A stretch of 35,641 bases of DNA from a virus. Where the stretch lies: IMG/VR virus record IMGVR_UViG_3300045988_048484, one strand, 5' to 3'. Positions within the stretch are counted from its first letter, which is position 1, and every line of letters begins with the position of its first letter. A model generated the notes under the pieces. The model worked only from the letters and a program-made list of their open reading frames with translations, made no database searches and was not told the DNA's origin. Below are positions 4,472 through 35,641 of the stretch, in pieces. The position numbers and the translations under genes were made by a program.

Positions 4472-4500
4472 ATAATATCATATAAAAACTGCCTTGTCAG
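4472..4500 (-). promoter_or_regulatory. Candidate late promoter (-35 CTGACA, 17-nt spacer, -10 TATTAT) abutting the 10-bp repeat array
   Basis: The minus strand reads CTGACA(4500-4495)-aggcagtttttatatga-TATTAT(4477-4472). It is directly downstream of the repeats at 4501-4540. Confidence 0.4.
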
Positions 4501-4678: not shown

Positions 4679-5173
4679 CTATGTAAACCACTTCGATCGT
4701 TCGGCCCTGTTGAACAATTTGTTCAGGGCGATTTCTCTTTGACGGTAGACTGTGGTTCTGTCCACCTGAAGGAATTCAGCGGCTTCTTCGTATGACCTGT
4801 AAGGGTAATACAGGGCCAGAAGGACGCATTTTGAACGGGTGTCCAGTGTCAGGACCAGGGACCGGACTTCTTCGATCTGGCGAAGCTGACGTTCCAGGTT
4901 CGCGATCGCTTCGTCTGCTCTGGCGCGCCGGCGGTCACGTCGGTCGACCATTCGGACCAGGTTCCCGTCTGGTTCTGGTGAAGAAGCGCGGACGCCCGTC
5001 GGGTTTATGGCCGTGGAAGGATAGGCGCCCGACATAAGTATTTCTTCCAGATCGTATTCCAGGGATTCTTTTTCGGCGGCGATCTGTGCTTCTATGACGC
5101 GCGCTTCCTGGTCGTGGTTCCGAAGTATATCCATGACCCTTGTTCTGACTTGACTTTCTTTCGGTTTGTCCAT
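4679..5173 (-). CDS. Sigma-70 region-4-like / RinA-ArpU-type putative late transcriptional activator
   Basis: The C-terminal HTH reads SYEEAAEFLQVDRTTVYRQREIALNKL. This is the last protein gene before the packaging module, the usual position for late activators. Confidence 0.55.
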   Translation of the reverse strand: MDKPKESQVRTRVMDILRNHDQEARVIEAQIAAEKESLEYDLEEILMSGAYPSTAINPTGVRASSPEPDGNLVRMVDRRDRRRARADEAIANLERQLRQIEEVRSLVLTLDTRSKCVLLALYYPYRSYEEAAEFLQVDRTTVYRQREIALNKLFNRAERSKWFT

Positions 5174-5203
5174 TTTTCTTCACCACCTTTCCGACACTTC
5201 GGA

Positions 5204-5596
5204 TTAAAACGGAATGTCTTCGTCTTCGCCCACTTCTTCGAAGTCGCCGGAAGCATAAGCGTTAGCGGCATAACTGCCGGCTTCCGCGTCTTTCTTCGCG
5301 TCTGCGAAATAGACAGAATCGGCCACGACTTCGACGGCCTTTCTTTTTCTGCCTTCGTTGTCTTCCCAGGTTCTGGTCTGGATAGAACCGACGACGGCGA
5401 TCCTGGTTCCTTTCTGGAAGTGCTTCGAAATGAATTCGGCGGTCTGTCGCCAGGCCACGACGTCAATGAAGTCGGCCTTCTCTCTGTTGAAGCGGCGGTC
5501 GACGGCCAGGGAAAACGACACGACGGCCGTTCCCTGTGGGGTGTATTTCAGTTCTGGATCGCGTGTCATGCGGCCCAGAAGTTGACATTGATTCAT
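5204..5596 (-). CDS. ssb: Single-stranded DNA-binding protein
   Basis: OB-fold N-terminus MNQCQLLGRMTRDPELKYTPQGTAVVSFSLAV and an acidic tail ending in DIPF. Confidence 0.92.
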   Translation of the reverse strand: MNQCQLLGRMTRDPELKYTPQGTAVVSFSLAVDRRFNREKADFIDVVAWRQTAEFISKHFQKGTRIAVVGSIQTRTWEDNEGRKRKAVEVVADSVYFADAKKDAEAGSYAANAYASGDFEEVGEDEDIPF

Positions 5597-5616
5597 GTGG
5601 TTTCCTCGCTTTCGGT

Positions 5617-6024
5617 TTAGAATTTCTTCCCGTGTTTATATGGGCGGCCTTCGTTATATGCCATTTTCTCACGGATAGCGGCGTCCAGGTCGATTCCCAG
5701 GTGTCCGCAAAGGTCCGCGATCCGGATCACAGCGTCAGCCAGTTCGACGGCCACGCCTTCGGGTTTTTTGCTTCTGTACTTGCACAGATTTTCTTTACCG
5801 TACATAAGGCAGTCAGTTTCGTCCTGTGGCGCGCAAGTGCTGACGCCGTCAGCTTCGTTGCATTTATACCAGACCATAGGACGACCTTCGCGTTCTTCTT
5901 CCAGTGCTTCAGAAAGTTCGCTGTGGATCAATGCGATAGCGGTTCCGAAGTCAATGGGCGGATTCCAGAAGTCGTGATTCACGGCGTTTTCGTGGGCCTT
6001 CTTGACCATTTCGTTAATTTCCAT
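5617..6024 (-). CDS. mazG: MazG-like nucleotide pyrophosphohydrolase
   Basis: 135 aa with HSELSEALEEER and the AVELADAVIRIADL helix pair typical of phage MazG. Confidence 0.75.
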   Translation of the reverse strand: MEINEMVKKAHENAVNHDFWNPPIDFGTAIALIHSELSEALEEEREGRPMVWYKCNEADGVSTCAPQDETDCLMYGKENLCKYRSKKPEGVAVELADAVIRIADLCGHLGIDLDAAIREKMAYNEGRPYKHGKKF

Positions 6025-6030
6025 GCTGTT

Positions 6031-6564
6031 TTACCTCCCAATTTCAGATATGACTTTGATTCGTACTTCCTGGCGGCCGAACTGAAGGGCGGCTTCGTGG
6101 TCTTCGAAGTAGACGTCGATCTTCAGGCCCTTAATGGCGCCGCCGCGATCCTGAACTATGTATTTCCCCAGGCCTTCGATCTGAAGGACGGTTCCAGGCG
6201 GATAGACGTCCCAGTCAGCGGCGATCGTGACGCCTTCCTGGGCGATAGCGCCCGACGCGGTGTAGACGATACCGTTCGGCCGGTTTTCGGCCCACGCGCC
6301 ACAGCATTTTTCACAGGGACAGTAAGCCGTCGCCGTGACGGTCGTCCAGGCTTCTTCTGGCGGCTTTGTTTCGTCCGGTAGGGGAAGAATAGGGGCGGAC
6401 GGTTTAGACGTCGCCAGGGGCGCCAGAATCGCTTCCTGGGCGCCTTTTGTTTCTTCCTGGACAATTCCTTCGGCGGCCGCCGGTTCGGCCGCCATAACGA
6501 AGGACGTACACACCAGGACGCTTCCCAGAAGCAGACACAGGAAACTAAATGTCAGTTGTTTCAT
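6031..6564 (-). CDS. Secreted 3D-domain (MltA/RlpA-like double-psi beta-barrel) cell-wall protein
   Basis: Signal peptide MKQLTFSFLCLLLGSVLVCTSFVMA. The C-terminus TATAYCPCEKCCG...GTVLQIEGLGKYIVQDRGGAIKGLKIDVYF matches the 3D-domain pattern. Confidence 0.75.
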   Translation of the reverse strand: MKQLTFSFLCLLLGSVLVCTSFVMAAEPAAAEGIVQEETKGAQEAILAPLATSKPSAPILPLPDETKPPEEAWTTVTATAYCPCEKCCGAWAENRPNGIVYTASGAIAQEGVTIAADWDVYPPGTVLQIEGLGKYIVQDRGGAIKGLKIDVYFEDHEAALQFGRQEVRIKVISEIGR

Positions 6565-7042
6565 TTCGGTTCACCTTCCTTTTCGGGGATCGCCTTGATT
6601 CCCAGATTATCTTCGGGCCGGTTGGATATTTTTCGGGCATTTCGCGCGGTCGGCTTGGTACTGACCACCCATTCGCCTTTCCTTCAGTCATTCCGATCTG
6701 TTTGAAGCCGGCGGCGCGTAGACTGGCGCCAGATTCCGACGGTAGGGTGTAGGTGATGATTCGGCGATACCCCATAGCGCGCGCCGCGCGCCAGGCGGCC
6801 GCATACAGAAGCGAATTCGCGTTTTTGTGTCCTTCGATCACGCAACAACGGGTTATTTCTGCCGTTTTTCCGTCGTCGTTCCGTCTTGCAATAGGCCGCC
6901 CAACGGTGACGACGCCGATCAAAACGCCGTCTTCCTTAACTCCGATACTGAATTTCTGGCCTTGCGGCGCTACATTGTGACGGTGATGTTCGTTCACGAA
7001 TTCCTTTGCTTCTTTGAAGGTTATCGGTGTTATTTCAATCAT
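6545..7042 (-). CDS. GNAT-fold (XF1762-like) acetyltransferase-like protein
   Basis: 165 aa. The FSIGV..DGVLIGVVTVGRP...TRCCV...YRRIITYT pattern resembles small GNAT-like proteins often found next to phage methylases. The start overlaps the methylase stop. Confidence 0.5.
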   Translation of the reverse strand: MIEITPITFKEAKEFVNEHHRHNVAPQGQKFSIGVKEDGVLIGVVTVGRPIARRNDDGKTAEITRCCVIEGHKNANSLLYAAAWRAARAMGYRRIITYTLPSESGASLRAAGFKQIGMTEGKANGWSVPSRPREMPEKYPTGPKIIWESRRSPKRKVNRNETTDI

Positions 7043-7587
7043 TCACGACACCGCCTTCCACTTCGTCGCCCCAGGCGTCCCACCCAGGGGCCGTCTGTCT
7101 GGCGAATAACTCGATTCGTGATACCCCCCCCCGCAAGCCGAACTATACGGTCACGGGTTTCGGCCGGTTTCTCACTGTGGCGGCCGATCGGGGCGTCGAT
7201 TACACTGTGGACGGACGCGGAAGCGCGTTTCGGCTTGCCTTTTGTAGCCAGAAGGCAAACTTCGGCGTTCGCGCGTGTCCAGTTCCCCAGGCCCCAGAAC
7301 CAGGAAGGGGACTTCTTGTTCCTTTTTACCCAGACGAACGCGGCGGTCTTGTATGTAAAACCCCACCGTTTGATCGCTTCCAGGGCGACGTCCAGGTTCG
7401 GGAATGTGGCCCACATGAACAGAAGACAGTCGTCTTCGGCTATATCCTGGACTGGAAGGTCGAAGATGTCTTCCGGCTTCATGGTCTTATAATGCCTTTC
7501 GGCGTTTCGCGTGGCGCCGCCGGCGGCATAGTTCCAGGGTGGGTCAGCATAGATCACGGAATATTTCTTGTCTGGGAATGGTATCAT
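7039..7587 (-). CDS. MT-A70 family DNA N6-adenine methyltransferase, frameshifted at a G9 tract (C-terminus out of frame as assembled)
   Basis: It carries the DPPW motif (YADPPWNY) and HSEKPAETRDRIVRL. After the G9 run the frame reads ITNRVIRQTDGPW...; with one fewer G it reads VSRIELFARQTAPGWDAWGDEVEGGVVND, the canonical family C-terminus. Confidence 0.85.
   Translation of the reverse strand: MIPFPDKKYSVIYADPPWNYAAGGATRNAERHYKTMKPEDIFDLPVQDIAEDDCLLFMWATFPNLDVALEAIKRWGFTYKTAAFVWVKRNKKSPSWFWGLGNWTRANAEVCLLATKGKPKRASASVHSVIDAPIGRHSEKPAETRDRIVRLAGGGITNRVIRQTDGPWVGRLGRRSGRRCRE
7124..7132. repeat. Homopolymer C9 (G9 on the coding strand) inside the methyltransferase gene
   Basis: The plus strand reads ata-ccccccccc-gcaag. 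The coding strand reads CTT GCG GGG GGG GGT ATC. Confidence 0.95.
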
Positions 7588-7850
7588 GTGGCCACCGCCT
7601 TTCTGGCGGCCAGGTTTTCAGCCGACCGCTTTTCACAGTAGACGGAAAAGGCCATTTCGCGGATCACGTCGGGGATCAGTAAGACCAGGTATTCGTCACC
7701 GTAGCCGTCTTCACCCCATTCGCGGCCGGCGGACCGGTTCGCGACTTCCAGTTTCCTTCTGGCGTATTGTTCGGCGTCTGCGAAGAATACTGGACACAGT
7801 TCGACGCCCAGTTCGGCTTCGACTGCGATCTGAAGATCAGTCTTTTCCAT
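7584..7850 (-). CDS. Hypothetical protein (88 aa)
   Basis: ORF in the operon orientation. Its stop overlaps the methylase start (ATGA-type junction). No motif was recognised. Confidence 0.5.
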   Translation of the reverse strand: MEKTDLQIAVEAELGVELCPVFFADAEQYARRKLEVANRSAGREWGEDGYGDEYLVLLIPDVIREMAFSVYCEKRSAENLAARKAVAT

Positions 7851-8070
7851 GCTTCAGACCTCCCTTCAGGTGATCCGGCATTTCGGCCGGAAGGACGGCC
7901 TGGTGGACCAGGACAAGGTCACTTTCGTCCACCAGGGCCATATCGTCGAAAATGTCGAATGTCCCGTCCGTCAGGTTGACCGCGTTGTGTGGGCGGCGCG
8001 TCTTCAGGAAGGCCGTTCCGTTGTGTTCGAAGACGTCGCCGGCGTTCAGATTACCATACTTCACTTTCAT
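7837..8070 (-). CDS. Hypothetical small protein (77 aa; shortened from track ORF 7837..8295)
   Basis: An internal ATG at 8070 gives MKVKYGNLNAGDVFEHNG.... The longer ORF would overlap the VR1 gene by 245 nt in another frame. Confidence 0.4.
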   Translation of the reverse strand: MKVKYGNLNAGDVFEHNGTAFLKTRRPHNAVNLTDGTFDIFDDMALVDESDLVLVHQAVLPAEMPDHLKGGLKHGKD

Positions 8071-8749
8071 CTTCGTCACCGTCTTCCTGGCCTTCGGCGA
8101 TTCTGCGAAGGACTTCTTCAACAAGCTGTTTCGAAGTGAATTCGGCCAACAGTGCGGAATCAGAAAATTCGACCTGGTCAGGTTCCAGGGATAACGTGAT
8201 CCCAGATTCCACATAGAAAGCCGGCCGAACGCCAAGGTAGCCAATGTACGCGTAGCTGCGGCCCAGACTGCCGTCAGCGCTGACACCGCGCGCACCGTTC
8301 GCGTTGCCGGCGTACGGGGTGATCAGCCACCACCAGTCGTCCAGGGTCAGAAGGTCCTGTTCGCTGTACTTGCGGAACATGGCTTCAGACAGAAGGGCGA
8401 TCTTGTCCTGAATGATACCGTAACCGGCGCCGCCTTCGTGGTCTGCCAGGTCCCAGTCTGCCGTCAGAATGTGGGCGGAACGGATAGGTCCTTCAGCATG
8501 GTCGAAAGCGGCCAGGAATTCGGTGTTCAGTTCCTTTCGAAGATTGCTGAAGCGCCAGTCGTTCGGATTCGTTTCCGGCTTTTCAGGTCTGGTCTTGAAA
8601 GGCTGATCTGCGAAGTGGCGGTCGGCGATACAGGCGTCGGCGATCAGAAGGGTTCTTCCGTTCGTGAAGTGTTCCAGAATCCGGACGTCGATCGGTCCGG
8701 CGTTGAATACGGTTCCGGGTGCAAGGTCTTTGATTTTAGCGTTTACCAT
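8051..8749 (-). CDS. DGR target protein 1 (232 aa), C-type-lectin/FGE-like variable domain (WWL.TPYAG...GVRPA class), located in the early region
   Basis: The start was reset to the ATG at 8749, which is preceded by GAAGGAGGAAAAACAA. It contains VR1. The motifs DDWWWLITPYAGNANGARGVSADGSLGRSYAYIGYLGVRPAF are paralogous to the N-terminal domain of ORF 18522..20222. Confidence 0.85.
   Translation of the reverse strand: MVNAKIKDLAPGTVFNAGPIDVRILEHFTNGRTLLIADACIADRHFADQPFKTRPEKPETNPNDWRFSNLRKELNTEFLAAFDHAEGPIRSAHILTADWDLADHEGGAGYGIIQDKIALLSEAMFRKYSEQDLLTLDDWWWLITPYAGNANGARGVSADGSLGRSYAYIGYLGVRPAFYVESGITLSLEPDQVEFSDSALLAEFTSKQLVEEVLRRIAEGQEDGDEDESEVW
8217..8320 (-). repeat. DGR variable repeat VR1
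   Basis: It aligns without gaps to TR 21454-21557. Over the 100-bp core (8221-8320) there are 17 mismatches, all where the TR coding strand has A. Confidence 0.93.
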
Positions 8750-9164
8750 TTGTTTTTCCTCCTTCGAATTCTTCGATCGTGACTTCGATTCGCGGGTCTT
8801 TCGGGTCCACGGCGAAGTCGTCTGTGAAATGCTCGATCTGGCCCCACCCGTCATTATCCAGGACGCCACAGTGGACCAGGCTGTCCTGAATGAACTTTTT
8901 CGCGAAGGCGATATTGTCCTTATCGCGACGACGGTTCGGTTCGACCCACAGATAGCGGATCACGACGGGGCGGTCGAAATGGACGCCGCGAAGCTGTGTC
9001 TTTACCATGTATCCGATCACGTTTTCGGCCTGTTTCTTCATGGCGGCGGCCTTATACTTACCCTTGACGGCTCTTTCGGCGTCAATGTATTCGTTTAACC
9101 CTGGCAGAAGGCCAGGAATGGTCAGTTTGTACTGTTTTTTCACTCGTTCACGTCCTTTCCTCAC
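8736..9164 (-). CDS. rusA: RusA-like Holliday junction resolvase
   Basis: 142 aa with RRRDKDNIAFAKKFIQDSLVHCGVLDND, the RusA catalytic Asp-rich pattern. Confidence 0.8.
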   Translation of the reverse strand: MRKGRERVKKQYKLTIPGLLPGLNEYIDAERAVKGKYKAAAMKKQAENVIGYMVKTQLRGVHFDRPVVIRYLWVEPNRRRDKDNIAFAKKFIQDSLVHCGVLDNDGWGQIEHFTDDFAVDPKDPRIEVTIEEFEGGKTNGKR

Positions 9165-11593: not shown

Positions 11594-12088
11594 TTACTTG
11601 ATCTGAATGTTTCGGTTCTCGATCAACGTCGCGCCGGCGATTTCCTGTCCGGCCTGAATTGCCTTCTTGATTGCCGTTTTGTCCGGCTTCGTGGACACGG
11701 TTTCCACGATAAAGTCAGCCGGAAGGGCGCCTTCGTCTTCGATATTCACCGCCACGGACTTTCTGAAGGACACGCGGACCTTTGCGGTTTCGACCTTGTC
11801 ACGGCCGGCGGCGTCCAGACAGGAAGTCAGATACTTCTTCATGTTGTCGACCTTACGTTCTGCGCTCTTTCTGCGCTCTGCCAGGCTCGATTCCTCTGTC
11901 TTCAGGGAACCGATAAAGGCTTCCAGGTTCTTAATGTAACAGGCCACAGATTCGGCCTTTTCCTCAAACACACCGGCCAGGGCGTCCACTGCTTCGAAAT
12001 TCAGGATTTCGCCGGTTTCTTCGTCGACCTCCAAACGGTCGAAGGCTTCCAGATATTCACGGGTGATTTCATACAGACTATTATTCAT
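11594..12088 (-). CDS. Siphovirus Gp157-like protein
   Basis: 164 aa with an N-terminal coiled coil (ITREYLEAFDRLEVDEETGEI) and a C-terminus ending in IK. It sits upstream of the annealase, as in many Firmicutes phages. Confidence 0.6.
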   Translation of the reverse strand: MNNSLYEITREYLEAFDRLEVDEETGEILNFEAVDALAGVFEEKAESVACYIKNLEAFIGSLKTEESSLAERRKSAERKVDNMKKYLTSCLDAAGRDKVETAKVRVSFRKSVAVNIEDEGALPADFIVETVSTKPDKTAIKKAIQAGQEIAGATLIENRNIQIK

Positions 12089-13094: not shown

Positions 13095-14135
13095 TCAAAT
13101 TAGCATGGCGACGCCTTCAGCGAACACAGAATTCGCGCTTCTGAATCCGTGAATTTCTCTGGGGTAGTTGTTGATCCAGTCTTCGACCTGGCGGATCGCC
13201 TTCGCCGTTACCTGGCGGAAGTCAGTCCCCTTCGGGAACCACCGGCGGATCATTTTATTCAGATTTTCGTTCGTCCCTCTCTCATACGAAGAATAGGGGT
13301 GACAATAATAGACCTTTGTCCTGTTGCCTTTCCGGCGACAGGACTTTTCTATTCCCTGGCAGTCGGCGAATTCGGAACCGTTGTCGACGGTGATCGTCTG
13401 GAATATCTTATAGAAGGCGGCGCCGTATTGACGTTCAAGGCGATCCAGGGCCGCGACGACGCTTCGGCTTGTCTGGTCCTTCATAGGGATAATGATTTCT
13501 TTTCTGGACTTTCGTTCGGTCAGAACCAGAAGGGTTTTCTTCGTCTTTTTCTTGCCTTCGACACAGTCCATTTCCCAGTGACCGACGGTTTCCCTGGCGT
13601 TGATCTCTTTCGGGCGGTTTTCAATACTTTCACCGGCGGAAGGACGGGAAGCCTTCTTCACGCGGTTATAGGAACGCTTCTTCTTGCTCTTTTCCGGAAG
13701 GCTTTTGTTCGTAATGGTCAGAAAGACACCTTTGTCGATATAGGAATAAAGGGTCGATTCACAGATCGACGTCTGGAATTCGATTCCCTGTTCCTTGATT
13801 TCACCCAGGACAGCGGCCGGCGAATAGCCTTCTTCGCCGATCTTCTTTTCGATATACTGGGCCAGGGCGTGATCCTTGCCGATCTTCAGATCAGGACCCT
13901 TCGCCGCCAGGTGTTCCCTGTATGCCGCTTCGGCTATGTCCGGACTGTATCGTTCTTCTTCGGTCAGGTCCGAATTCGTGTGGATATAACGGCCACGCTT
14001 GACTTCGTTGTAAATGGTGCGAAGGTGGACACCGATTTCGTCGGCGATTTCCTGGTAATGCCGGCCGGCCTTCAACATGGCTTCAATCTTCAGGCGATCG
14101 TTCCATGATAAATGTCTGAATCTGCGTCTTTTCAT
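13095..14135 (-). CDS. IS30-family DDE transposase (346 aa)
   Basis: N-terminal HTH, then the catalytic core WEMD...TVDNGSEF...YCHPYSSYERGTNENLN (D, D, E spacing typical of IS30). The start was reset to the ATG at 14135 behind GGGAGGAATAACA. Confidence 0.88.
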   Translation of the reverse strand: MKRRRFRHLSWNDRLKIEAMLKAGRHYQEIADEIGVHLRTIYNEVKRGRYIHTNSDLTEEERYSPDIAEAAYREHLAAKGPDLKIGKDHALAQYIEKKIGEEGYSPAAVLGEIKEQGIEFQTSICESTLYSYIDKGVFLTITNKSLPEKSKKKRSYNRVKKASRPSAGESIENRPKEINARETVGHWEMDCVEGKKKTKKTLLVLTERKSRKEIIIPMKDQTSRSVVAALDRLERQYGAAFYKIFQTITVDNGSEFADCQGIEKSCRRKGNRTKVYYCHPYSSYERGTNENLNKMIRRWFPKGTDFRQVTAKAIRQVEDWINNYPREIHGFRSANSVFAEGVAMLI

Positions 14136-14155
14136 TGTTATTCCTCCCTGGGTAA

Positions 14156-14187
14156 GCAAAAAGGCCCCGTCCGTAATGGACAGGGCC
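14156..14187 (-). terminator. Rho-independent terminator after the RHH gene
   Basis: Minus-strand RNA GGCCCUGUCC-AUUAC-GGACGGGGCC forms a 10-bp stem with one G-U pair, followed by UUUUUG. Confidence 0.75.
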
Positions 14188-14405: not shown

Positions 14406-14434
14406 ATTATATACTACCGGTAGTATATTGTCAA
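14406..14434 (-). promoter_or_regulatory. Consensus sigma-70 promoter (TTGACA-17 nt-TATAAT) with an embedded perfect 20-bp palindrome (operator candidate)
   Basis: The minus strand reads TTGACA(14434-14429)-atatactaccggtagta-TATAAT(14411-14406). The palindrome ATATACTACCGGTAGTATAT lies at 14409-14428. Confidence 0.7.
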
Positions 14435-15533: not shown

Positions 15534-15575
15534 AAAAGGCGGTCAAGGGAAATTCCCCTGACCGCTTCTTTTTTA
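15532..15575. terminator. Bidirectional rho-independent terminator between convergent genes
   Basis: AAAAAA-GCGGTCAAGGG-aaatt-CCCCTGACCGC-TTCTTTTTT. Confidence 0.8.
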
Positions 15576-16058
15576 TAGGTCTGCGTATTTTCCGAAGCCG
15601 CGACGCTTCAGTTCTTCGCGGTATTTCCGTTCCAGTCGTGCGTCCTGGGACTTCTTCGTGTTTTCGACAGCAGTCGTCAAAACAAGGTGTCCAGGCGTGA
15701 ATTTTACATACATACCGCCGCCGCGATAACCTTTCATATAGACGAAGGATTTTCCTTCCCACCGGCCAGGGACCCAGTGACCCCTGAAGCCATATTCAAG
15801 GTGTTTCGCGTATTCGACGTTATTGAACACGTCGATCTTGTAATACTTGCCGGCGCGAATGGCACGTTTGCCGAAGTTGAATCCGCGCATATAGTGGCCG
15901 GTTCTGTGGATATTCTTTCGCTGACAGATCAGGACCGCCTGATCGCGCGCGTATTCGCCTTCTTCGACGACCAGTCGGTCCATGATTTCCGGAATATCGT
16001 TTTCAAGTTCCTTCAGCTTCTTTTCCATGTCGATAAGTCCGTCGTGTTTTACTGCCAT
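15573..16058 (-). CDS. HK97 gp10-family head-tail/neck protein (XkdI-like), displaced to the end of the late region
   Basis: 161 aa. The MEKKLKELENDIPEI... start and NNVEYAKHLEYGF match the gp10-family N.VEYA..vEyG signature. Confidence 0.7.
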   Translation of the reverse strand: MAVKHDGLIDMEKKLKELENDIPEIMDRLVVEEGEYARDQAVLICQRKNIHRTGHYMRGFNFGKRAIRAGKYYKIDVFNNVEYAKHLEYGFRGHWVPGRWEGKSFVYMKGYRGGGMYVKFTPGHLVLTTAVENTKKSQDARLERKYREELKRRGFGKYADL

Positions 16059-17805: not shown

Positions 17806-18055
17806 GGTGTTCCAGGTCTTCGATTCGGTGGTTCGCGACCTTCATCTTTTCTTCATAAACGTCAAGCGCTTTTTCGACCTTGTAAAGTCTTTCGACCGCG
17901 CTATTATGAAGTTCCACCTTCTTTTCAAGCTGTTCCAGGCGGTAAGCGATCAGCGCCGAACTTTTCCGGTGGGCGAAATAGGTTCCGGCCAGGGTTCCGA
18001 CCAGGGACAGAAGTCCTATGATAATTCCTTCGGTCATTCGGTCACCTCCGTCCAC
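17792..18055 (-). CDS. BhlA/UviB-like protein: N-terminal TM anchor plus coiled coil
   Basis: GIIIGLLSLVGTLAGTYF is followed by a heptad-rich stretch LEQLEKKVELHNSAVERLYKVEKALDVYEEKMK. Confidence 0.5.
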   Translation of the reverse strand: MDGGDRMTEGIIIGLLSLVGTLAGTYFAHRKSSALIAYRLEQLEKKVELHNSAVERLYKVEKALDVYEEKMKVANHRIEDLEHHDQA

Positions 18056-18504
18056 CCATAGACGCCAGGTTCCCAGACGTTCGCGTCGACGTCAGAAGTC
18101 CAGTGTTTCCCGTTGTGGGAAACCTTCGCGCCGGCGTCATAAGCGTCCTGGGCGCCGACAGGCTGTGACCAGTCGGGCCATTCCACGGTCGGATCGCCAA
18201 TCTTCACCCACAGGGAAACGGCGGCGTCAGGGGTCCAGTCTGCTTGTGAAGTGTGATCCTGAATACAGCGGTACAGTTCGCCGTTATGGCGGCGAATGTT
18301 GCCGGCCTTGTATGTAGCCGGATAGACCCAGGGCGAAAACTGACTGGCGTTTTCGGTTGCGGTTACGTCGTCGATCTGGCCGCCTTCAGCCAGGGTCACA
18401 AAGGCGATAGAAGTCGCCCTGGAAATTTCGTTCACGGGGTTCTGTGCTTCCTGGGCCTTTGCTTCCTTCATGCTGACGGCTTCGCATTTTGTAGGATCGA
18501 ACAT
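18034..18504 (-). CDS. Protein with two CBM5/12-like (chitin-binding-type) carbohydrate-binding repeats
   Basis: YKAGNIRRHNGELYRCIQDHTSQADWTPDAAVSLW and YDAGAKVSHNGKHWTSDVDANVWEPGVYGW match the Y..G..V...G..Y........W.P pattern. Confidence 0.65.
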   Translation of the reverse strand: MFDPTKCEAVSMKEAKAQEAQNPVNEISRATSIAFVTLAEGGQIDDVTATENASQFSPWVYPATYKAGNIRRHNGELYRCIQDHTSQADWTPDAAVSLWVKIGDPTVEWPDWSQPVGAQDAYDAGAKVSHNGKHWTSDVDANVWEPGVYGWTEVTE

Positions 18505-18521
18505 TTCGGTTTCCTCCTTCC

Positions 18522-20222
18522 TTATGCGAAACGGATCGTCGCCTGTGTAACTTCGATTTCTTCGTCACCCTTCAGGATATAGAAGCGATAACCCAGGCCG
18601 TAACCGTTCGCGGCTGTCGTGTTGCTGAAAACGTGAACAAGGCTGTTCACTTTGCTTGTGATTTCCTCCCATACAGGGGAATCGTCGAACGGATTGTTCG
18701 TGACTTCCAGGTAAAGGGTGGAATCCGCCGGCCTTTCGGTCGGATAAAGAGAAATAAAGACCTTCTGGACCAGGGCGTCGGTAGAGAAGGCGCGCGCGGC
18801 CGCGATTCTGCTGACGGTTCGGCTGAAGGTGATCTTCCTTGTGGCCGTTCCGCCGGCGCCGTCGCTTGCGGTGATCGTCAGGACGTGGGTTCCGGCGATC
18901 AGTTTCAACCAGACGTCAGTCAGGTCGATCGTGTTTGTGGCGCCGCTTGTGGCGGTGTAGCTTCGAAGGGTGATCGTTTCGGAACCGTTCGTCAGAGTTT
19001 CAACGACGGTCAAGGTCTGGGACGAAGCCTGGGCGTCAGTCACGGTATAGGAATGACTGAAGGGGTCAGTCTTCGCGCCGACGTTGGTGTCGGAACCGCT
19101 GATCACGGGCGCGGTGTTGTAGGAAATGGTTTTCGCGGAACCGGTACAATATCCGGATTCAAGGCCGTTCGCGTCGACTGCCTTCACGCGGACCTGATAG
19201 GTCGTTCCGGACGTCGGAACAGTGTCGGTGATCGACTTTGTGGTCGTGATCCCGATCTGGGTGTAGGCGCCGGAATCGGTTCGTCTTTCCCAGACGTAGG
19301 AAATGGCGTCGCCTTCAGGATCGGAAGAACCGCCGGTCGTGATTGTCAGACTATTTCCGGCCTGTGGTGTGCCATAGGAAATAGAAGACGGATCAGTGGG
19401 CGGCTGATTCCACTGAAGGATATAAGCGCCGTCTGTGTCTGTTGAATCGGATACCAGATTCGTAGATGCCAATTCCAAAGCCGGCCGAACGCCATAGTCG
19501 CCACCGTACGCGCTGTAGCCGTTCAGACTGCCGCCAGTGTAGACACTGCGCGCAAGGTGCGCGCCGCCGGCGTACGGGGTACGAAGCCACCAATACCAGG
19601 CAGAAGAAGCGTTCAGACTGGAATTTGTATATTCGGACATGCTGACTGCTTCGGCCGTAGGCATACACTGACGACGTGTGGCGCTGTTGAAGTAAGACCA
19701 GACGGTTCCTTCTGCGACGCTGTTTTCGTTGGCCAGGCCGACTTCGGTGTTCGACAACAGATAGACCTTTCGGGTGATGTCTTCATAACCGCCGCCGTCG
19801 GTGACGGTGTTCTTTGCGACACGGATCACGCTGTCCAGGATCGCGGCGCGGAAGTCTGCTTCGAAGTTGGTCAGGAAGCCGGCTTCGGCGTCGTATTCGT
19901 TGTAGTTCGACCAGACATTCGCGTTTGTGGGCGCGGCGTCGGCGCTGTGCCTTGCGGAATACCAGGAAGAAGCGGCACTGTTTAACCACTGGTCAATGTT
20001 GGACACTGAATAGCGGTTATTACCGTAGTTCTTGCGATCGGAATTACTGTTCGACGCTTCCTTCGCGTCGAAGGCCTTCAGTGTGATAATCTTTTCAGTG
20101 ACCAGTTTCGTTCGGCCCGTCGCCTGGTGACCCACTATGAACCTGATCTGTTTCCCGTTGTACTTCGTATTCGCCGACTTGACGATCGCGCCAACGGGCA
20201 AAGCGGAAAGTAATTTCGCCAT
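18522..20222 (-). CDS. DGR target protein 2 (566 aa): N-terminal variable lectin-like domain, followed by Ig/FN3-like repeats and a C-terminal beta-rich domain. Probable receptor-binding tail protein
   Basis: It contains VR2 at about codons 215-248 (WYWWLRTPYAGGAHLARSVYTGGSLNGYSAYGGDYGVRPAL). Downstream come DPEGDAISYVWE- and NTAPVISG-type Ig-like segments. RBS GGAGGGAATAACCT. Confidence 0.88.
   Translation of the reverse strand: MAKLLSALPVGAIVKSANTKYNGKQIRFIVGHQATGRTKLVTEKIITLKAFDAKEASNSNSDRKNYGNNRYSVSNIDQWLNSAASSWYSARHSADAAPTNANVWSNYNEYDAEAGFLTNFEADFRAAILDSVIRVAKNTVTDGGGYEDITRKVYLLSNTEVGLANENSVAEGTVWSYFNSATRRQCMPTAEAVSMSEYTNSSLNASSAWYWWLRTPYAGGAHLARSVYTGGSLNGYSAYGGDYGVRPALELASTNLVSDSTDTDGAYILQWNQPPTDPSSISYGTPQAGNSLTITTGGSSDPEGDAISYVWERRTDSGAYTQIGITTTKSITDTVPTSGTTYQVRVKAVDANGLESGYCTGSAKTISYNTAPVISGSDTNVGAKTDPFSHSYTVTDAQASSQTLTVVETLTNGSETITLRSYTATSGATNTIDLTDVWLKLIAGTHVLTITASDGAGGTATRKITFSRTVSRIAAARAFSTDALVQKVFISLYPTERPADSTLYLEVTNNPFDDSPVWEEITSKVNSLVHVFSNTTAANGYGLGYRFYILKGDEEIEVTQATIRFA
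19475..19580 (-). repeat. DGR variable repeat VR2
   Basis: It aligns without gaps to TR 21452-21557. Over the 100-bp core (19481-19580) there are 17 mismatches, all where the TR coding strand has A. Confidence 0.93.
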
Positions 20223-21288
20223 AGGTTATTCCCTCCAATTCTTTTCTGAACAGGCTGAAGAACAGGTCGTCCGTCTTCCTGATCAGATGATAGCTGTTCC
20301 CGTGTTCGGCGTGGCCGGTCCAGGACGAATATGACTGAATGATCGTTTCAATGTCGATCCGGCCTTCGTCCAGAAGGTGACGGAATTTCTTCAGCTTTCG
20401 TCTGATTCGGTTTTTGCTGTCACGGCGAATTTTGCGGATCACCTTTCCGGTGTCCATCATGTAGGTCCTAAAACCCAGGAAGTCGATCCCCTGGGTCAAG
20501 GGAAATATGGCCGTTTTCTGGTTCAGTTCCAGTCCAAGCGGAACAAGGAATTTTCTGATTTCTTCCAGGCAATACTGAAGATATTCCTTGTCGTGGTGGA
20601 TCAGATAGAAGTCGTCCATGTAACGGCCATAAAATTTGATTCCCAGACGTTCCTTGATCATGTGGTCCATTCCGGATAGGTACAGGACCGCGAACCATTG
20701 TGAAGTGTGGTTCCCGATCGGGATTCCTGGCCCTTCGGTGGAATCTATGATCATATCAAGAAGCCATAAGACGTCGGTGTCTTTGATAAGCCGGCGAAGC
20801 TGTGATTTCAGAACGTCGTGATCGATTCTGTAAAAGTATTTTCGAACGTCGCACTTCAGGACCCACCCGTCCGTCCCGTGTTGCCGGTAAAACTTCTGCA
20901 TAAACAGTTTCAGGCGGTCAAGGCCGAAGTGTGTTCCTTTGCCCTTTTGACTTGCGTAGTTGTCGTATATGAAGGTTTTTGAAAGAACCGGTTCCAGGAC
21001 ATTGTCGCAAAGACTGTGCTGAACGATTTTGTCGCGGAATGAATTATACATAATCAGGCGTTCCTTCGGTTCCTTTACTATGAAGCAGTTATAAGGCGAA
21101 AGGCGGTATTTGTGTGACGTCAGCATGAAGTGAATGAACATAAGGTTTTCAAGAATGTTCGCTTCGTATTTGCAGACGGCATACTTCCACCGTTTACCTT
21201 TGCGCGCTTCTGTATACGACGAATACAGGCTGTTAAAGTCTGCGACAGACGCGAAGTCAGAAGGTTCTGCTTTCTGTTCTTCGCTCAA
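20095..21288 (-). CDS. DGR reverse transcriptase
   Basis: Hallmark IGNHTSQWFAVLYL (the DGR-specific motif-4 SQ) and catalytic YMDD (GRYMDDFYLI). TTG start at 21288 behind AAGGAGGA. The 3' end overlaps the target 2 start by 128 nt. Confidence 0.93.
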   Translation of the reverse strand: MSEEQKAEPSDFASVADFNSLYSSYTEARKGKRWKYAVCKYEANILENLMFIHFMLTSHKYRLSPYNCFIVKEPKERLIMYNSFRDKIVQHSLCDNVLEPVLSKTFIYDNYASQKGKGTHFGLDRLKLFMQKFYRQHGTDGWVLKCDVRKYFYRIDHDVLKSQLRRLIKDTDVLWLLDMIIDSTEGPGIPIGNHTSQWFAVLYLSGMDHMIKERLGIKFYGRYMDDFYLIHHDKEYLQYCLEEIRKFLVPLGLELNQKTAIFPLTQGIDFLGFRTYMMDTGKVIRKIRRDSKNRIRRKLKKFRHLLDEGRIDIETIIQSYSSWTGHAEHGNSYHLIRKTDDLFFSLFRKELEGITYGEITFRFARWRDRQVGEYEVQRETDQVHSGSPGDGPNETGH

Positions 21289-21451
21289 TTTAGAATCCTC
21301 CTTGACGCTTATAGTCCGGCCGTCACCACGGAAGGCCTTTCGTCGTCAATCATGTATTTACCGTAGCCTTTCCGGCTTGCGGAAGGAAACGACCTCCTTT
21401 GTTGGGGTACTCTGCTTTCAGGTTCGTCGCCTTACTCGGTCACGTTTTCCA

Positions 21452-21557
21452 CCAAATCCGGCCGAACGCCATTGTTGCCATTGTACGCGTTGTTGTTGTT
21501 CAGACTGCCGTCAGTGTTGACATTGCGCGCATTGTTCGCGTTGCCGGCGTTCGGGGT
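21452..21557 (-). repeat. DGR template repeat (TR)
   Basis: It lies between avd and the RT gene. On the coding strand it encodes TPNAGNANNARNVNTDGSLNNNNAYNGNNGVRP, with 13 AAY Asn codons. The 100-bp core contains 31 adenines. Confidence 0.93.
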
Positions 21558-21583
21558 AACAGGTCGTTCCCTAATGGGTTTTA

Positions 21584-22042
21584 TCACACGCCTTCAGGTA
21601 TCGGCGCCGAAGGTTCCACCGGTTCGGCGGTTTCCTGTTCGGCCTTATACCATTTAGCGGTCATAAACTTAACGTCCAGGGTCAGCTTCGTCCAGTAGTC
21701 AAAGGTTCCCTTGTCGATATAGGACCGCTTCTTCGACAGTTCGATCATGTGAAGCAGTTTCTTACATTCGGTCAGGGCGGCCCTTTGCAGACGAAGCCGT
21801 TCCAGGCGATCCGCTTCGTCGCGGATCGGGAATATTTCGTTCGCTTCCAGTAGGTCGTCATATATGGCCATGACGTGACCCTGGATTCTGTTGACAATAG
21901 AAAAGCGAACCTTCTTCGGGAAGCGGTTCGCGTTGTCAGTCAGGTCCAGGGTGTAGTCGATCAGCTTGTCGGCCACCGGAAGAACGTGAAGCGGACTTTC
22001 GTTTTTATTCGAAGACCGCTGATAATTTCTTCGGGTTCCCAT
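21584..22042 (-). CDS. avd: Avd-like DGR accessory variability determinant (four-helix-bundle protein)
   Basis: 152 aa. LIDYTLDLTDNANRFPKKVRFSIVNRIQGHVMAIYDDLLEAN fits the Avd/four-helix-bundle pattern. It ends 26 nt upstream of the TR. Confidence 0.8.
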   Translation of the reverse strand: MGTRRNYQRSSNKNESPLHVLPVADKLIDYTLDLTDNANRFPKKVRFSIVNRIQGHVMAIYDDLLEANEIFPIRDEADRLERLRLQRAALTECKKLLHMIELSKKRSYIDKGTFDYWTKLTLDVKFMTAKWYKAEQETAEPVEPSAPIPEGV

Positions 22043-22262
22043 TGATACACCTTCGCTTTCTTATTCTTTCGACTGTTTCCGGATCGCCGGAATAGTCGAA
22101 GCCATATTCACGAAGGACGACGGTTTCTTCCGTGCCTTCGTAGGTTACGCCACACAGAACCACGCTGTCGCCCTCACAATGGCCGCAGACGGGCCGAAGT
22201 TCGGTGAATAGGTTAGACACCAGACAGGACGTTTCTGAAGGCGTACAGGCGAACCTGGTCAC
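22005..22262 (-). CDS. Hypothetical Cys-containing small protein (85 aa)
   Basis: Its start overlaps the fiber-gene stop by 4 nt. No family was recognised. Confidence 0.4.
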   Translation of the reverse strand: MTRFACTPSETSCLVSNLFTELRPVCGHCEGDSVVLCGVTYEGTEETVVLREYGFDYSGDPETVERIRKRRCINGNPKKLSAVFE

Positions 22263-23005
22263 AGATACAGGCGATTCTGGGACGTGTCCAGAATCCCTTC
22301 TGGAACGCCGTCGCCGTCATAGCCGACCCAGTTCGCGATCTGTGCCGGCGCGAAGGTGTGTGTCACGGTGGTTCCCGCGAAGCCGGTGTTTAACTGGTCC
22401 AGGATCGACTGAATGTCGTTGTCCTGGCGTCGCTGAACCTGTTCGGTCGTTTCGCCGGTCGTTTCGTTGATCGTGGACGCGGCCTGGGTGTGGACCACCG
22501 GCGCCGCGTAGGCGATTAACTGGGTATTTGTGACGTAGGAACCGGCGCCCACCTGAACGGACACGGCGGCCGCTTCCTGGTTCGTAATGAAGACGGCCAG
22601 GTCGTGAATGTGGACAGTGTCGGCCCCGTCTTCGAAAGACGTCGCCGGAATGACGTTGTCACTGTCTTCGCCGTCAAGCCACCCATAACAGAACAGGATT
22701 TCCTCTCCGTTGATGTCCTGGCCGAAAACGCCGATTTCTCTGACCCAGACGTTCGCTTCCAGTGCTTCGTTCGTGATCTGAACGGGAATTCGCATGATCG
22801 CCGGTGTGCCGTCGACGAATTCCTTTCCGGCAAGGTTCGCGGTTACGTCTTCAGGATTGATAAGTCCCGACAGGGTGTTCGGACTGACGTCCGGAACTCC
22901 ACTTCCGGCGGCCGCGCGCGTCAGGTTCAGTCCCTGTCCTGAAGCGATCAAGGCTGTCAGCGCTTCGACGCCGCTGTCGGTAACGATAGACTTGAATTTT
23001 GCCAT
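22259..23005 (-). CDS. Tail fiber protein (P2 H / Mu S-type conserved N-terminal domain)
   Basis: MAKFKSIVTDSGVEALTALIASGQGLNLTRAAAGSG resembles the conserved tail-fiber N-terminus. It follows the baseplate genes. Confidence 0.7.
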   Translation of the reverse strand: MAKFKSIVTDSGVEALTALIASGQGLNLTRAAAGSGVPDVSPNTLSGLINPEDVTANLAGKEFVDGTPAIMRIPVQITNEALEANVWVREIGVFGQDINGEEILFCYGWLDGEDSDNVIPATSFEDGADTVHIHDLAVFITNQEAAAVSVQVGAGSYVTNTQLIAYAAPVVHTQAASTINETTGETTEQVQRRQDNDIQSILDQLNTGFAGTTVTHTFAPAQIANWVGYDGDGVPEGILDTSQNRLYL

Positions 23006-35095: not shown

Positions 35096-35641
35096 TCACT
35101 TCTTTTTCTTGTCGAATGTCGCAGTCACAAGGCGCGGAACATTCGAACCATTATCTATCTGCCATACGGTATTTAGCCGCAAGAAGCGGCCTTTTTTGCC
35201 GTATACAATGACAGGGACCTTGTATTTCGTGCCATGCTTCGTCGTCGTGATCGTCGAAACAGGGGACTTCTGGACTTCGCGGAATATCTTGTCGGAAAAC
35301 TCTGACCAGTTGGTCCGATCGTAGCCTAAAACGCTTTCTATGACGTGCGCTTTGTGCTGACCTTCCTTGTGGTCGGGGTTCAGAAGATAATTGACGAACT
35401 TGTCTTCAGGCGTGGCCGCCTGGGAAGCGTTCGGCATGGTTCCGCGCGTTCCGACGCTGTTATAAAGGCGAACTTTCGCCTTCGTCATGGAATAGCGATC
35501 CGGATCGGTGTATTTCATATTCTGGAACGATTCAAGGTCGGCCGGAAGTTCGTCCACAGGAAGAACTGTCCGGTATGCGTCGAACTGTTCACTGTCCGCC
35601 TTTATATTATACGACTTTTTACGTTCCGTTTCAACGGAACC
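35096..35641 (-). CDS. C-terminal part of the wrap-around MuF-like minor head protein, carrying a DUF6883-like extension
   Basis: The frame is continuous with 1..1081 (…SVETERKKSYNIKADSE|QFDAYRTVLPVDELPADL…). The extension contains FVNYLLNPDHKEGQHKAHVIESVLGY and ...RLNTVWQIDNGSNVPRLVTATF. Confidence 0.85.
   Translation of the reverse strand, partial: GSVETERKKSYNIKADSEQFDAYRTVLPVDELPADLESFQNMKYTDPDRYSMTKAKVRLYNSVGTRGTMPNASQAATPEDKFVNYLLNPDHKEGQHKAHVIESVLGYDRTNWSEFSDKIFREVQKSPVSTITTTKHGTKYKVPVIVYGKKGRFLRLNTVWQIDNGSNVPRLVTATFDKKKK
35587..35641. repeat. 55-bp terminal direct repeat identical to 1..55 (circular assembly overlap)
   Basis: gttcactgtccgcctttatattatacgactttttacgttccgtttcaacggaacc is present at both window ends. 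Confidence 0.97.

Follow-up and report, generated by a model that had tools for sequence, protein, structure and literature searches.

Diversity-generating retroelements (DGRs) of phages have been explained almost wholly as tools to change receptor specificity. In the gut myoviruses nd4 and nd12, one template repeat (TR) serves both a tentaclin and tgt2, a protein of 234-294 amino acids (aa) that consists of DUF6273 only (Baykov et al. 2023, PMC10743442). The Faecalibacterium phages Lelie and CP11 carry a large and a small DUF6273 target, and population variation at both variable repeats (VRs) was shown for CP11 (Gulyaeva et al. 2024, PMC11792537); in Toutatisvirus the second VR gene is located 17,480 nucleotides (nt) from the TR, and 98.8% of the group have it (Egorov et al., bioRxiv 10.1101/2024.10.15.618418). 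In inducible gut prophages, distal second VRs near counter-defence genes, beside a DNA methyltransferase, were read in terms of a phage-host arms race (Nature 2025, PMC12629997). The gene described here is located at positions 8051-8749 of IMG/VR virus record IMGVR_UViG_3300045988_048484, a stretch of 35,641 nt that was analysed as a whole (the window), and encodes a 232-aa protein that carries one of two VRs, VR1. This protein very probably belongs to the published small stand-alone DUF6273 DGR targets (nd4/nd12 tgt2; Toutatis/Lelie/CP11; phrog_9958). Genomes with two targets, of which the small DUF6273 one is distal, have been published before (PMC10743442, PMC11792537, bioRxiv 10.1101/2024.10.15.618418), as has the proximity of distal VRs to counter-defence genes (PMC12629997), so that the novelty implied in a first-pass annotation of this DNA was overstated.

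A repeat found in three copies (8189-8332, 19449-19592 and 21426-21569) contains the TR and the two VRs (Table 1). VR1 and VR2 each have 17 mismatches per 100 nt to the TR, and in both cases 17/17 are located at TR adenines (hypergeometric P = 4e-11 for each VR). VR1 is 13.2 kb away from the TR and 11.3 kb away from VR2, and the two VRs are unlike at 22 of the 31 TR adenine sites. The translation of the TR is TPNAGNANNARNVNTDGSLNNNNAYNGNNGVRP and that of VR1 is TPYAGNANGARGVSADGSLGRSYAYIGYLGVRP. Both the presence of a second DGR target remote from the TR and the independent diversification of VR1 and VR2, as claimed in the first-pass annotation, were thus borne out: adenine-mutagenised copies of one TR have repeatedly replaced VR1 and VR2, each of which was selected independently.

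The 3' end of VR1, GGCGTTCGGCCGGCTTT, is the same in VR2, and the corresponding end of the TR reads ...GGATTT; this C/A difference between VR and TR recurs in other lineages. The contrast matches the distinction between IMH (initiation of mutagenic homing) and IMH* in the Bordetella BPP-1 DGR model, and by that model GGCGTTCGGCCGGCTTT is a candidate for the conserved G/C-rich IMH and may have a role in homing. Following the BPP-1 paradigm, the complex of reverse transcriptase (RT) and Avd would copy TR RNA, and the resulting cDNA would home to any VR with the shared 3' element, anywhere on the genome. Both VRs have 5-bp stems 17-19 nt past the candidate IMH, but a downstream hairpin or cruciform of the BPP-1 kind is not claimed, because folding was no better than that of shuffled sequence (folding energy z = -0.27 and +0.46).

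The protein database contained 1,050 homologues of the 232-aa protein, the best 120 of which are 73-93% identical to it. Several 90%-identity clusters of homologues hold thousands of distinct sequences, and the cluster of the window protein itself holds 919. Among 115 homologues, mean protein entropy was 1.33 bits in the VR versus 0.35 elsewhere, with peaks at 12 Asn-derived codons (149, 151, 152, 155, 157, 163-166, 169, 171 and 172) at which 10-13 residue types each were found. VR1 is not fixed among relatives, in line with its first-pass description as a diversifying repeat: 29 distinct VR1 sequences were identified among 33 loci, with polymorphism in 30 of the 31 TR-adenine columns versus 11 of the 69 non-adenine columns. 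The TRs of relatives vary at 2 of the 31 adenine columns. An adenine-specific relation between TR and small target was also found in five loci besides the window (a pair of close relatives and three more divergent phages, including nd4). Tyr makes up 23.5% of the residues at the variable sites, where Asn, Ser, Gly, Asp and Arg are used as well and Pro is absent; judged by residue usage, this composition is that of a selected binding surface.

Because the variation in relatives falls almost only on adenine-derived codons, the single DGR of this phage almost certainly has a live, remote (trans) target in the gene at 8051-8749. That it might be a relic, a former DGR target without further mutagenesis, is hardly credible. 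One relative, L083, in which the small-target VR has equal numbers of non-adenine and adenine mismatches to the TR, would fit such a relic, but all 17 VR1 differences in the window are at adenines, the 3' ends of VR1 and VR2 are identical, the 29 versions of VR1 vary at sites confined to adenine-derived positions, and the 90%-identity cluster contains 919 distinct sequences. The dead-target idea is effectively refuted by these population data. The small-target VR of L083 itself (18442-18559), with 17 non-adenine plus 17 adenine mismatches to its own TR, may belong to a recombinant or orphaned target. The small DUF6273 gene of locus L046 had no repeat match to the local TR, so that a role as DGR target cannot be demonstrated for all members of the family.

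The 232-aa protein is identical to GenBank DAU65088.1 ('hypothetical protein'). Its sole Pfam match is PF19789 (DUF6273, E = 1.6e-14), and in PHROGs it is a full-length match to phrog_9958 ('unknown function', E = 1.9e-48). It has an isoelectric point (pI) of 4.5, a net charge of -19, one Cys and an acidic C-terminal tail, and a hydrophobic N-terminus or segment was not found in it (maximum Kyte-Doolittle 19-mer 0.82), which agrees with the earlier description of an acidic protein without a signal peptide. The protein had also been taken for a stand-alone copy of the domain at the N-terminus of the other target, a 566-aa tentaclin that is a full-length match to phrog_10993 (E = 2e-205) and in which VR2 is mutated solely at adenine positions. 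This holds in that both proteins match DUF6273, but BLASTP aligned the VR segment alone (46% over 59 aa). Judged from these alignments, the 232-aa protein is a distant paralogue of the N-terminus of the 566-aa protein, with the VR kept alike by the common template, and not a recent copy. Immunoglobulin-like (Ig) domains were absent from the 232-aa protein both in Pfam and in the AlphaFold2 (AF2) model; the tentaclin layout, in which an N-terminal lectin-like domain precedes Ig-like domains and a C-terminal Ig anchor, was seen in the 566-aa target instead.

The AF2 model, built from diverse representatives (predicted local distance difference test, pLDDT, 88.6; predicted template modelling score, pTM, 0.81), is globular over residues 1-190, has a helix over 206-223 and ends in an acidic tail that is disordered. 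Within the VR, strands 152-156 and 162-166 make a surface-displayed beta-hairpin in which Tyr, Ser, Gly, Asp and Asn are abundant. A model from a shallow alignment of sequences 74-93% identical had a pLDDT of 45 and was discarded. Foldseek supported a C-type lectin fold weakly (classical lectins E > 1, DUF1566 E = 3.6e-4), and the only significant PDB match was 9qa6, the IgA peptidase of Thomasclavelia ramosa, through its N-terminal DUF6273 domain (E = 1.2e-7 in Foldseek and 3.5e-11 in the profile search). This domain was dropped as a functional precedent, as its paper gives it no function. Structure matches in BFVD were other DUF6273 phage proteins and, more weakly, DUF1566. Neither Mtd (PDB 1YU0) nor TvpA nor classical lectins gave a significant match in the phmmer, profile or Foldseek PDB searches, and beta-prism or beta-sandwich attachment domains were not found in the AF2 model, which comprises one globular domain plus the C-terminal helix. 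A helix motif, [FY][ST]xxELLxEv, recurs at the C-terminus of divergent homologues. In 112 of 116 members of the close family, the C-terminus (8051-8095 in the target gene) is an acidic run plus F or W, and the C-terminus of the phage's own single-stranded DNA-binding protein (SSB; 5204-5240) is EEVGEDEDIPF. An SSB-like C-terminal tip on the target was kept as a lead only, as the tail is not conserved in distant homologues.

The survey of synteny among related phages that the first-pass annotation had proposed was carried out, and the position of the target gene was found to be kept. The order RusA, target, small open reading frames (ORFs), methylase and Mom (both variably present), 3D-domain protein, MazG, SSB, regulator and terS was observed in some 45 loci of IMG/VR, the most distant with 55% protein identity. 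Relatives are prophages in metagenome-assembled genomes (MAGs) of Oscillospiraceae/Clostridia and in Senimuribacter sp. DSM 106208 (locus L058). Among GenBank phages, megablast gave no close relative and tblastn gave two matches only.

More distant phrog_9958 members were found in replication modules of other kinds. In L038 the gene has a Sak4-like annealing protein on one side and QueD/QueE on the other; in L039 it follows a primase-helicase and a helicase and precedes a late-type regulator and terL; in L051 its neighbours are DNA polymerase/thymidylate synthase on one side and a UvsX-like recombinase on the other; and in L062 it is located downstream of a pol III beta clamp. Tandem pairs of small targets were found in two loci. 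In L049 (9267-10504) the pair is located directly after SSB and is followed by a MazG-like gene and a primase-helicase; in L053 (1-2341) it is followed by Avd, TR and RT and then by RecT, HNH and SSB, with adenine-specific differences, so that the whole DGR of L053 is located in the recombination module. As judged from their neighbours, small DUF6273 targets are located in early or replication modules of at least eight unrelated lineages, which is an addition of the present analysis.

In three representative proteins (P0167, P0195 and P0235), the phrog_9958 domain is fused to a MazG-like nucleoside triphosphate (NTP) pyrophosphohydrolase (phrog_2245, E = 1e-19 to 1e-27), and the same fusion was recognised by motif in P0181 and P0243. 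The metal-binding EExxE...EExxD motifs of the fusions are intact, and variation in the fusion family is confined to VR positions, with the MazG part conserved. Two temperate phages of about 34 kb (L146 and L147) have the gene order RT, 766-aa DUF6273+Ig protein, lysis genes, serine recombinase and cI-like gene; divergent from the latter is a Cro-like gene, after which come one or two small genes and then the fusion, with methylases, Rep and terL beyond it. The fusion is the third or fourth gene after the divergent cI/Cro-like pair. The VRs of the fusion and of the 766-aa protein are 80-88% identical over 109 nt. The MazG of the window and the MazG part of the fusions have no similarity and belong to different NTP pyrophosphatase (NTP-PPase) families. 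No account of phrog_9958-MazG fusions was found in the searchable literature.

The tight co-oriented packing reported in the first-pass annotation was confirmed: the ATG of the target overlaps the end of rusA by 14 nt and is preceded, 8 nt upstream, by GAAGGAGG. The neighbourhood it described was also confirmed, with RusA, the DnaC-like loader and the replication initiator upstream, and two small ORFs, the MT-A70 methylase and the Mom-like GNAT gene downstream. The unit from the promoter candidate at 14434 to the regulator before terS contains weak terminator-like sites only, and the small protein would be transcribed within this long co-oriented unit from that candidate, appearing together with replication, recombination and DNA-modification proteins. 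Because the protein is without a signal peptide or virion anchor, is coupled to rusA and is encoded in a terminator-poor unit, its synthesis most likely accompanies that of the replication and DNA-modification proteins; because the same kind of neighbourhood recurs and the family is fused to a nucleotide pyrophosphohydrolase in other phages, a cytoplasmic binder would be its most likely role. Further points counted for early synthesis and a cytoplasmic location were the start/stop overlaps with both neighbours, which suggest translational coupling, the promoter/terminator layout, the synteny in about 45 loci, the replication-module neighbours and the MazG fusions, as well as the signal peptide of the 3D-domain protein, six genes downstream of the target, which itself has none. 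The product would be a soluble hypervariable binder in the infected cell, tied to the nearby nucleotide/DNA-metabolism or counter-defence genes. An early-made cytoplasmic hypervariable binder is favoured over a tail-associated receptor binder, although tentatively and with slightly more doubt than belief. The best explanation taken whole, namely a live remote DGR target of the tgt2 class with a possible early cytoplasmic role, stands in even balance.

Several points weigh against an early cytoplasmic role. The promoter and terminator calls are consensus matches only, and gene position does not establish timing. Elsewhere, DUF6273 belongs to proteins of the extracellular or virion type: tentaclins, and a secreted IgA peptidase that has it at the N-terminus. 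In print, tgt2 was proposed to bind receptors in the manner of Mtd (PMC10743442). The C-terminal helix motif is conserved and could serve to dock the protein on a virion component, the MazG-like part of the fusions might be a mere oligomerisation scaffold, and the window's own target carries no MazG fusion.

The most serious alternative is that the protein is a virion-associated accessory receptor-binding protein or adaptor with an Mtd-like role, docking by its C-terminal helix on the tail fibre, the baseplate or the tentaclin; the virion would thereby gain another binding specificity, diversified independently of the first. It is the hypothesis of the literature (PMC10743442; bioRxiv 10.1101/2024.10.15.618418), and it agrees with the predominance of tail proteins among phage DGR targets (PMC8144416), with the service of one TR to both the small target and the tentaclin, with a paratope-like usage of Tyr, Ser, Gly and Asp that fits receptor binding, with the conservation of the helix motif across divergent homologues, and with the extracellular habitat of other DUF6273 domains. 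However, the small target was never found in the tail module of the lineages examined but in replication or early operons, even right after a cI/Cro-like switch; it is without a beta-prism or beta-sandwich attachment domain, with Mtd not among the Foldseek or HMM (hidden Markov model) PDB matches; and a fusion to a nucleotide pyrophosphohydrolase fits poorly with a tail tip protein. We consider the adaptor role less likely, though it keeps appreciable weight. The first-pass idea of a non-tail, early-expressed binder is backed, by comparison, by the early modules of unrelated phages and the MazG fusions.

It is also conceivable, although improbable, that the protein is a soluble lectin-like binder that is freed at lysis and acts outside the cell, as a receptor decoy on debris or as an adhesin to mucus, glycans or other bacteria. 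Its acidic, soluble, single-Cys character would suit this role, though a signal peptide is missing, and DUF6273 is found in extracellular proteins; a tentaclin was reported in a lysogen secretome (bioRxiv 10.64898/2026.05.08.723808), and extracellular action of the adhesin/decoy type was proposed for secreted tentaclins of Mushu-like prophages. The steady link of the small target with replication/nucleotide-metabolism genes and the MazG fusions suggest an intracellular partner instead. An encapsidated, injected binder that neutralises a variable host factor at entry, like the anti-restriction proteins P1 Dar or T4 IPI, is a still more doubtful candidate and has very little to recommend it: the protein is acidic, the target adjoins genes of the DNA-modification/anti-restriction type (MT-A70, Mom), and distal VRs near counter-defence genes were remarked upon before (PMC12629997), but a packaging signal or capsid-targeting feature was not detectable in the target, and the early-operon position argues against co-assembly with heads.

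Protein family searches identified the window as the genome of a contractile-tailed temperate phage with nearly all genes on the minus strand; the features discussed are listed in Table 1. Its first and last 55 nt are identical (1-55 = 35587-35641), which indicates that the genome is complete, with 35,586 bp, and circular (or terminally redundant). A tyrosine or serine integrase was not found in the window; the IS30-like transposase is kept in relatives and in phage nd4 (49% identity) and may serve integration. The 77-aa ORF at 7837-8070 is about 65% identical among close relatives, versus 93-100% for the flanking genes. The 3D-domain (cell-wall-related) protein (6031-6564) has a clear N-terminal signal peptide or membrane anchor amid the DNA-metabolism block.

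Table 1. Coordinates of the genes, repeats and predicted signals discussed in the text. Positions are those of the window unless a locus is named.
Feature	Coordinates	Strand	Remarks
Small DGR target gene	8051..8749	-	232 aa, stand-alone DUF6273, phrog_9958; ATG at 8749, TAA 8051-8053
VR1 core	8221..8320	-	codons 144-177 of the target gene
VR1 3' end, candidate IMH	8217..8233	-	GGCGTTCGGCCGGCTTT
VR2 core	19481..19580	-	in the 566-aa tentaclin gene
TR core	21458..21557	-	100 nt, 31 A, Asn-codon rich; between avd and RT
Avd accessory protein	21584..22042	-	phrog_3206, E = 1.4e-26; after the tail fibre (22259-23005) in transcription order
DGR reverse transcriptase	20095..21288	-	phrog_1423, E = 9e-138
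Large target, tentaclin / 'Hoc-like'	18522..20222	-	566 aa, N-terminal DUF6273 + Ig-like domains; carries VR2; adjoins RT
156-aa protein, two CBM_5_12 carbohydrate-binding modules	18034..18504		directly downstream of the tentaclin gene; endolysin comes next
Two strongest predicted terminators	16108-16084 and 15565-15539		end of the unit holding DGR and endolysin
HK97-gp10-like (tail completion) gene	15573..16058		after endolysin, remote from other morphogenesis genes; bracketed by the two terminators
Perfect sigma-70 consensus TTGACA-17-TATAAT	14406..14434	-	candidate early promoter of the target-containing unit; consensus match only
IS30-like DDE transposase	13095..14159		rve domain + helix-turn-helix; first listed gene after the 14434 promoter candidate
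Mu-Gam-like gene	11594..12088		second in the unit; Erf-like protein, replication initiator, DnaC-like loader and RusA come after
RusA-like resolvase	8736..9164	-	end lies in the ATG region of the target
Small ORF, 77 aa	7837..8070	-	without family match; ATG at 8070; 20-nt overlap with the target 3' end
Conserved 88-aa ORF	7584..7850	-	downstream of the target in all relatives
MT-A70 methylase, Mom-like GNAT, secreted 3D-domain protein, MazG-like pyrophosphatase, SSB, sigma70-region-4-like regulator	4679..7587	-	co-oriented block
Regulator with weak sigma-70 region 4 matches	4679..5173	-	just upstream of terS
Promoter-like site	4472..4500	-	directly before terS and past the target block; candidate late promoter; consensus match only
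terS, terL, portal	4354 down to 1071	-	then round the circle to head, sheath, tube, tape measure, baseplate, tail fibre
phrog_9958-MazG-like fusion genes	L146:10001-10855, L147:10001-10867, L062:2695-3462, L063:1818-2672		

The functional idea put forward in the first-pass annotation is reasonable and was partly anticipated in print; it is strengthened by the cross-lineage synteny and the MazG fusions, which give it partial support. Its interest is moderate, in that the locus would be no surprise to a DGR specialist, yet it points to a clear testable question. In a more far-reaching form, which is possible but which we hold with considerable reserve, the DGR of temperate gut phages would diversify an early cytoplasmic 'antibody' against a variable host factor (a defence protein, a replication component or a nucleotide-type signal), in some lineages covalently coupled to MazG. 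If this is true, one retroelement evolves both the outside of the virion, through the tentaclin, and a takeover or counter-defence function inside the cell. If the small-target class acts intracellularly, targeted hypermutation also serves host takeover or counter-defence and would be a source of natural, evolvable intracellular binders. No report on expression, localisation or ligand of a small DUF6273 target was found in the searchable literature. The question is directly testable. Senimuribacter sp. DSM 106208 (L058) is in culture and carries a close relative, and activity was shown for related two-target phages of Faecalibacterium (Lelie, which needed no inducing treatment).

BPP-1 Mtd is a trimer of 381-aa chains at the tail-fibre tip, is built with beta-prism and beta-sandwich domains, and is encoded beside its DGR. 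Comparison with it showed a common principle: a DGR-diversified lectin-like ligand-binding surface, an Asn-codon-rich TR and homing set, putatively so in the window, by the 3' end of the VR. The trimer-tip domains and the DGR-adjacent gene position of Mtd are not found in the window target, and there is no sequence or fold match between the two. The tgt2 proteins of nd4 and nd12 are stand-alone DUF6273 proteins with a TR in common with the adjacent tentaclin, and their published AF2 models match the present one, with the VR beta-hairpin near the C-terminal end of the domain and flanked by short helices (PMC10743442). nd4_tgt2 is a detectable homologue (31.5% identity, E = 2e-9, tblastn), and in the deposited genome some 9-10 kb separate it from the RT; it comes later than the lysis genes there, among early/replication genes. 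However, nd4 belongs to another phage lineage without nucleotide similarity to the window, the acidic tail ending in an aromatic residue distinguishes the window protein from the tgt2 proteins, and tgt2 was placed by its authors in a 'DGR cassette' without discussion of the early-module position (PMC10743442).

The small target of Toutatis, Lelie and CP11 is also a DUF6273-only protein with no function assigned, is located far from a TR that it has in common with a 'Hoc-like' DUF6273+Ig protein beside the RT, and is a core gene of its phage group. These phages differ from the present one in their hosts, the relatives of the window being in Oscillospiraceae/Clostridia MAGs and Senimuribacter, and the small target of Toutatis was not picked up by tblastn at E = 1e-5. 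The prophages of PMC12629997 resemble the window in the distal position of the VR and in the arms-race reading, which is also that of the first-pass annotation; that account is a brief remark on four prophage species, mostly Bacteroidota, and analyses neither the protein family nor fusions nor synteny. In multicellular bacteria, C-type-lectin sensors that are diversified by DGRs and fused to enzymatic/NTPase domains act inside the cell in conflict systems (PMC10907252), and the DUF6273-MazG fusions are comparable in description to these lectin-enzyme fusions. The sensors are cellular, large, multidomain proteins (STAND NTPases and similar) that serve defence, whereas the window target is phage-encoded and small and would serve offence or host takeover.

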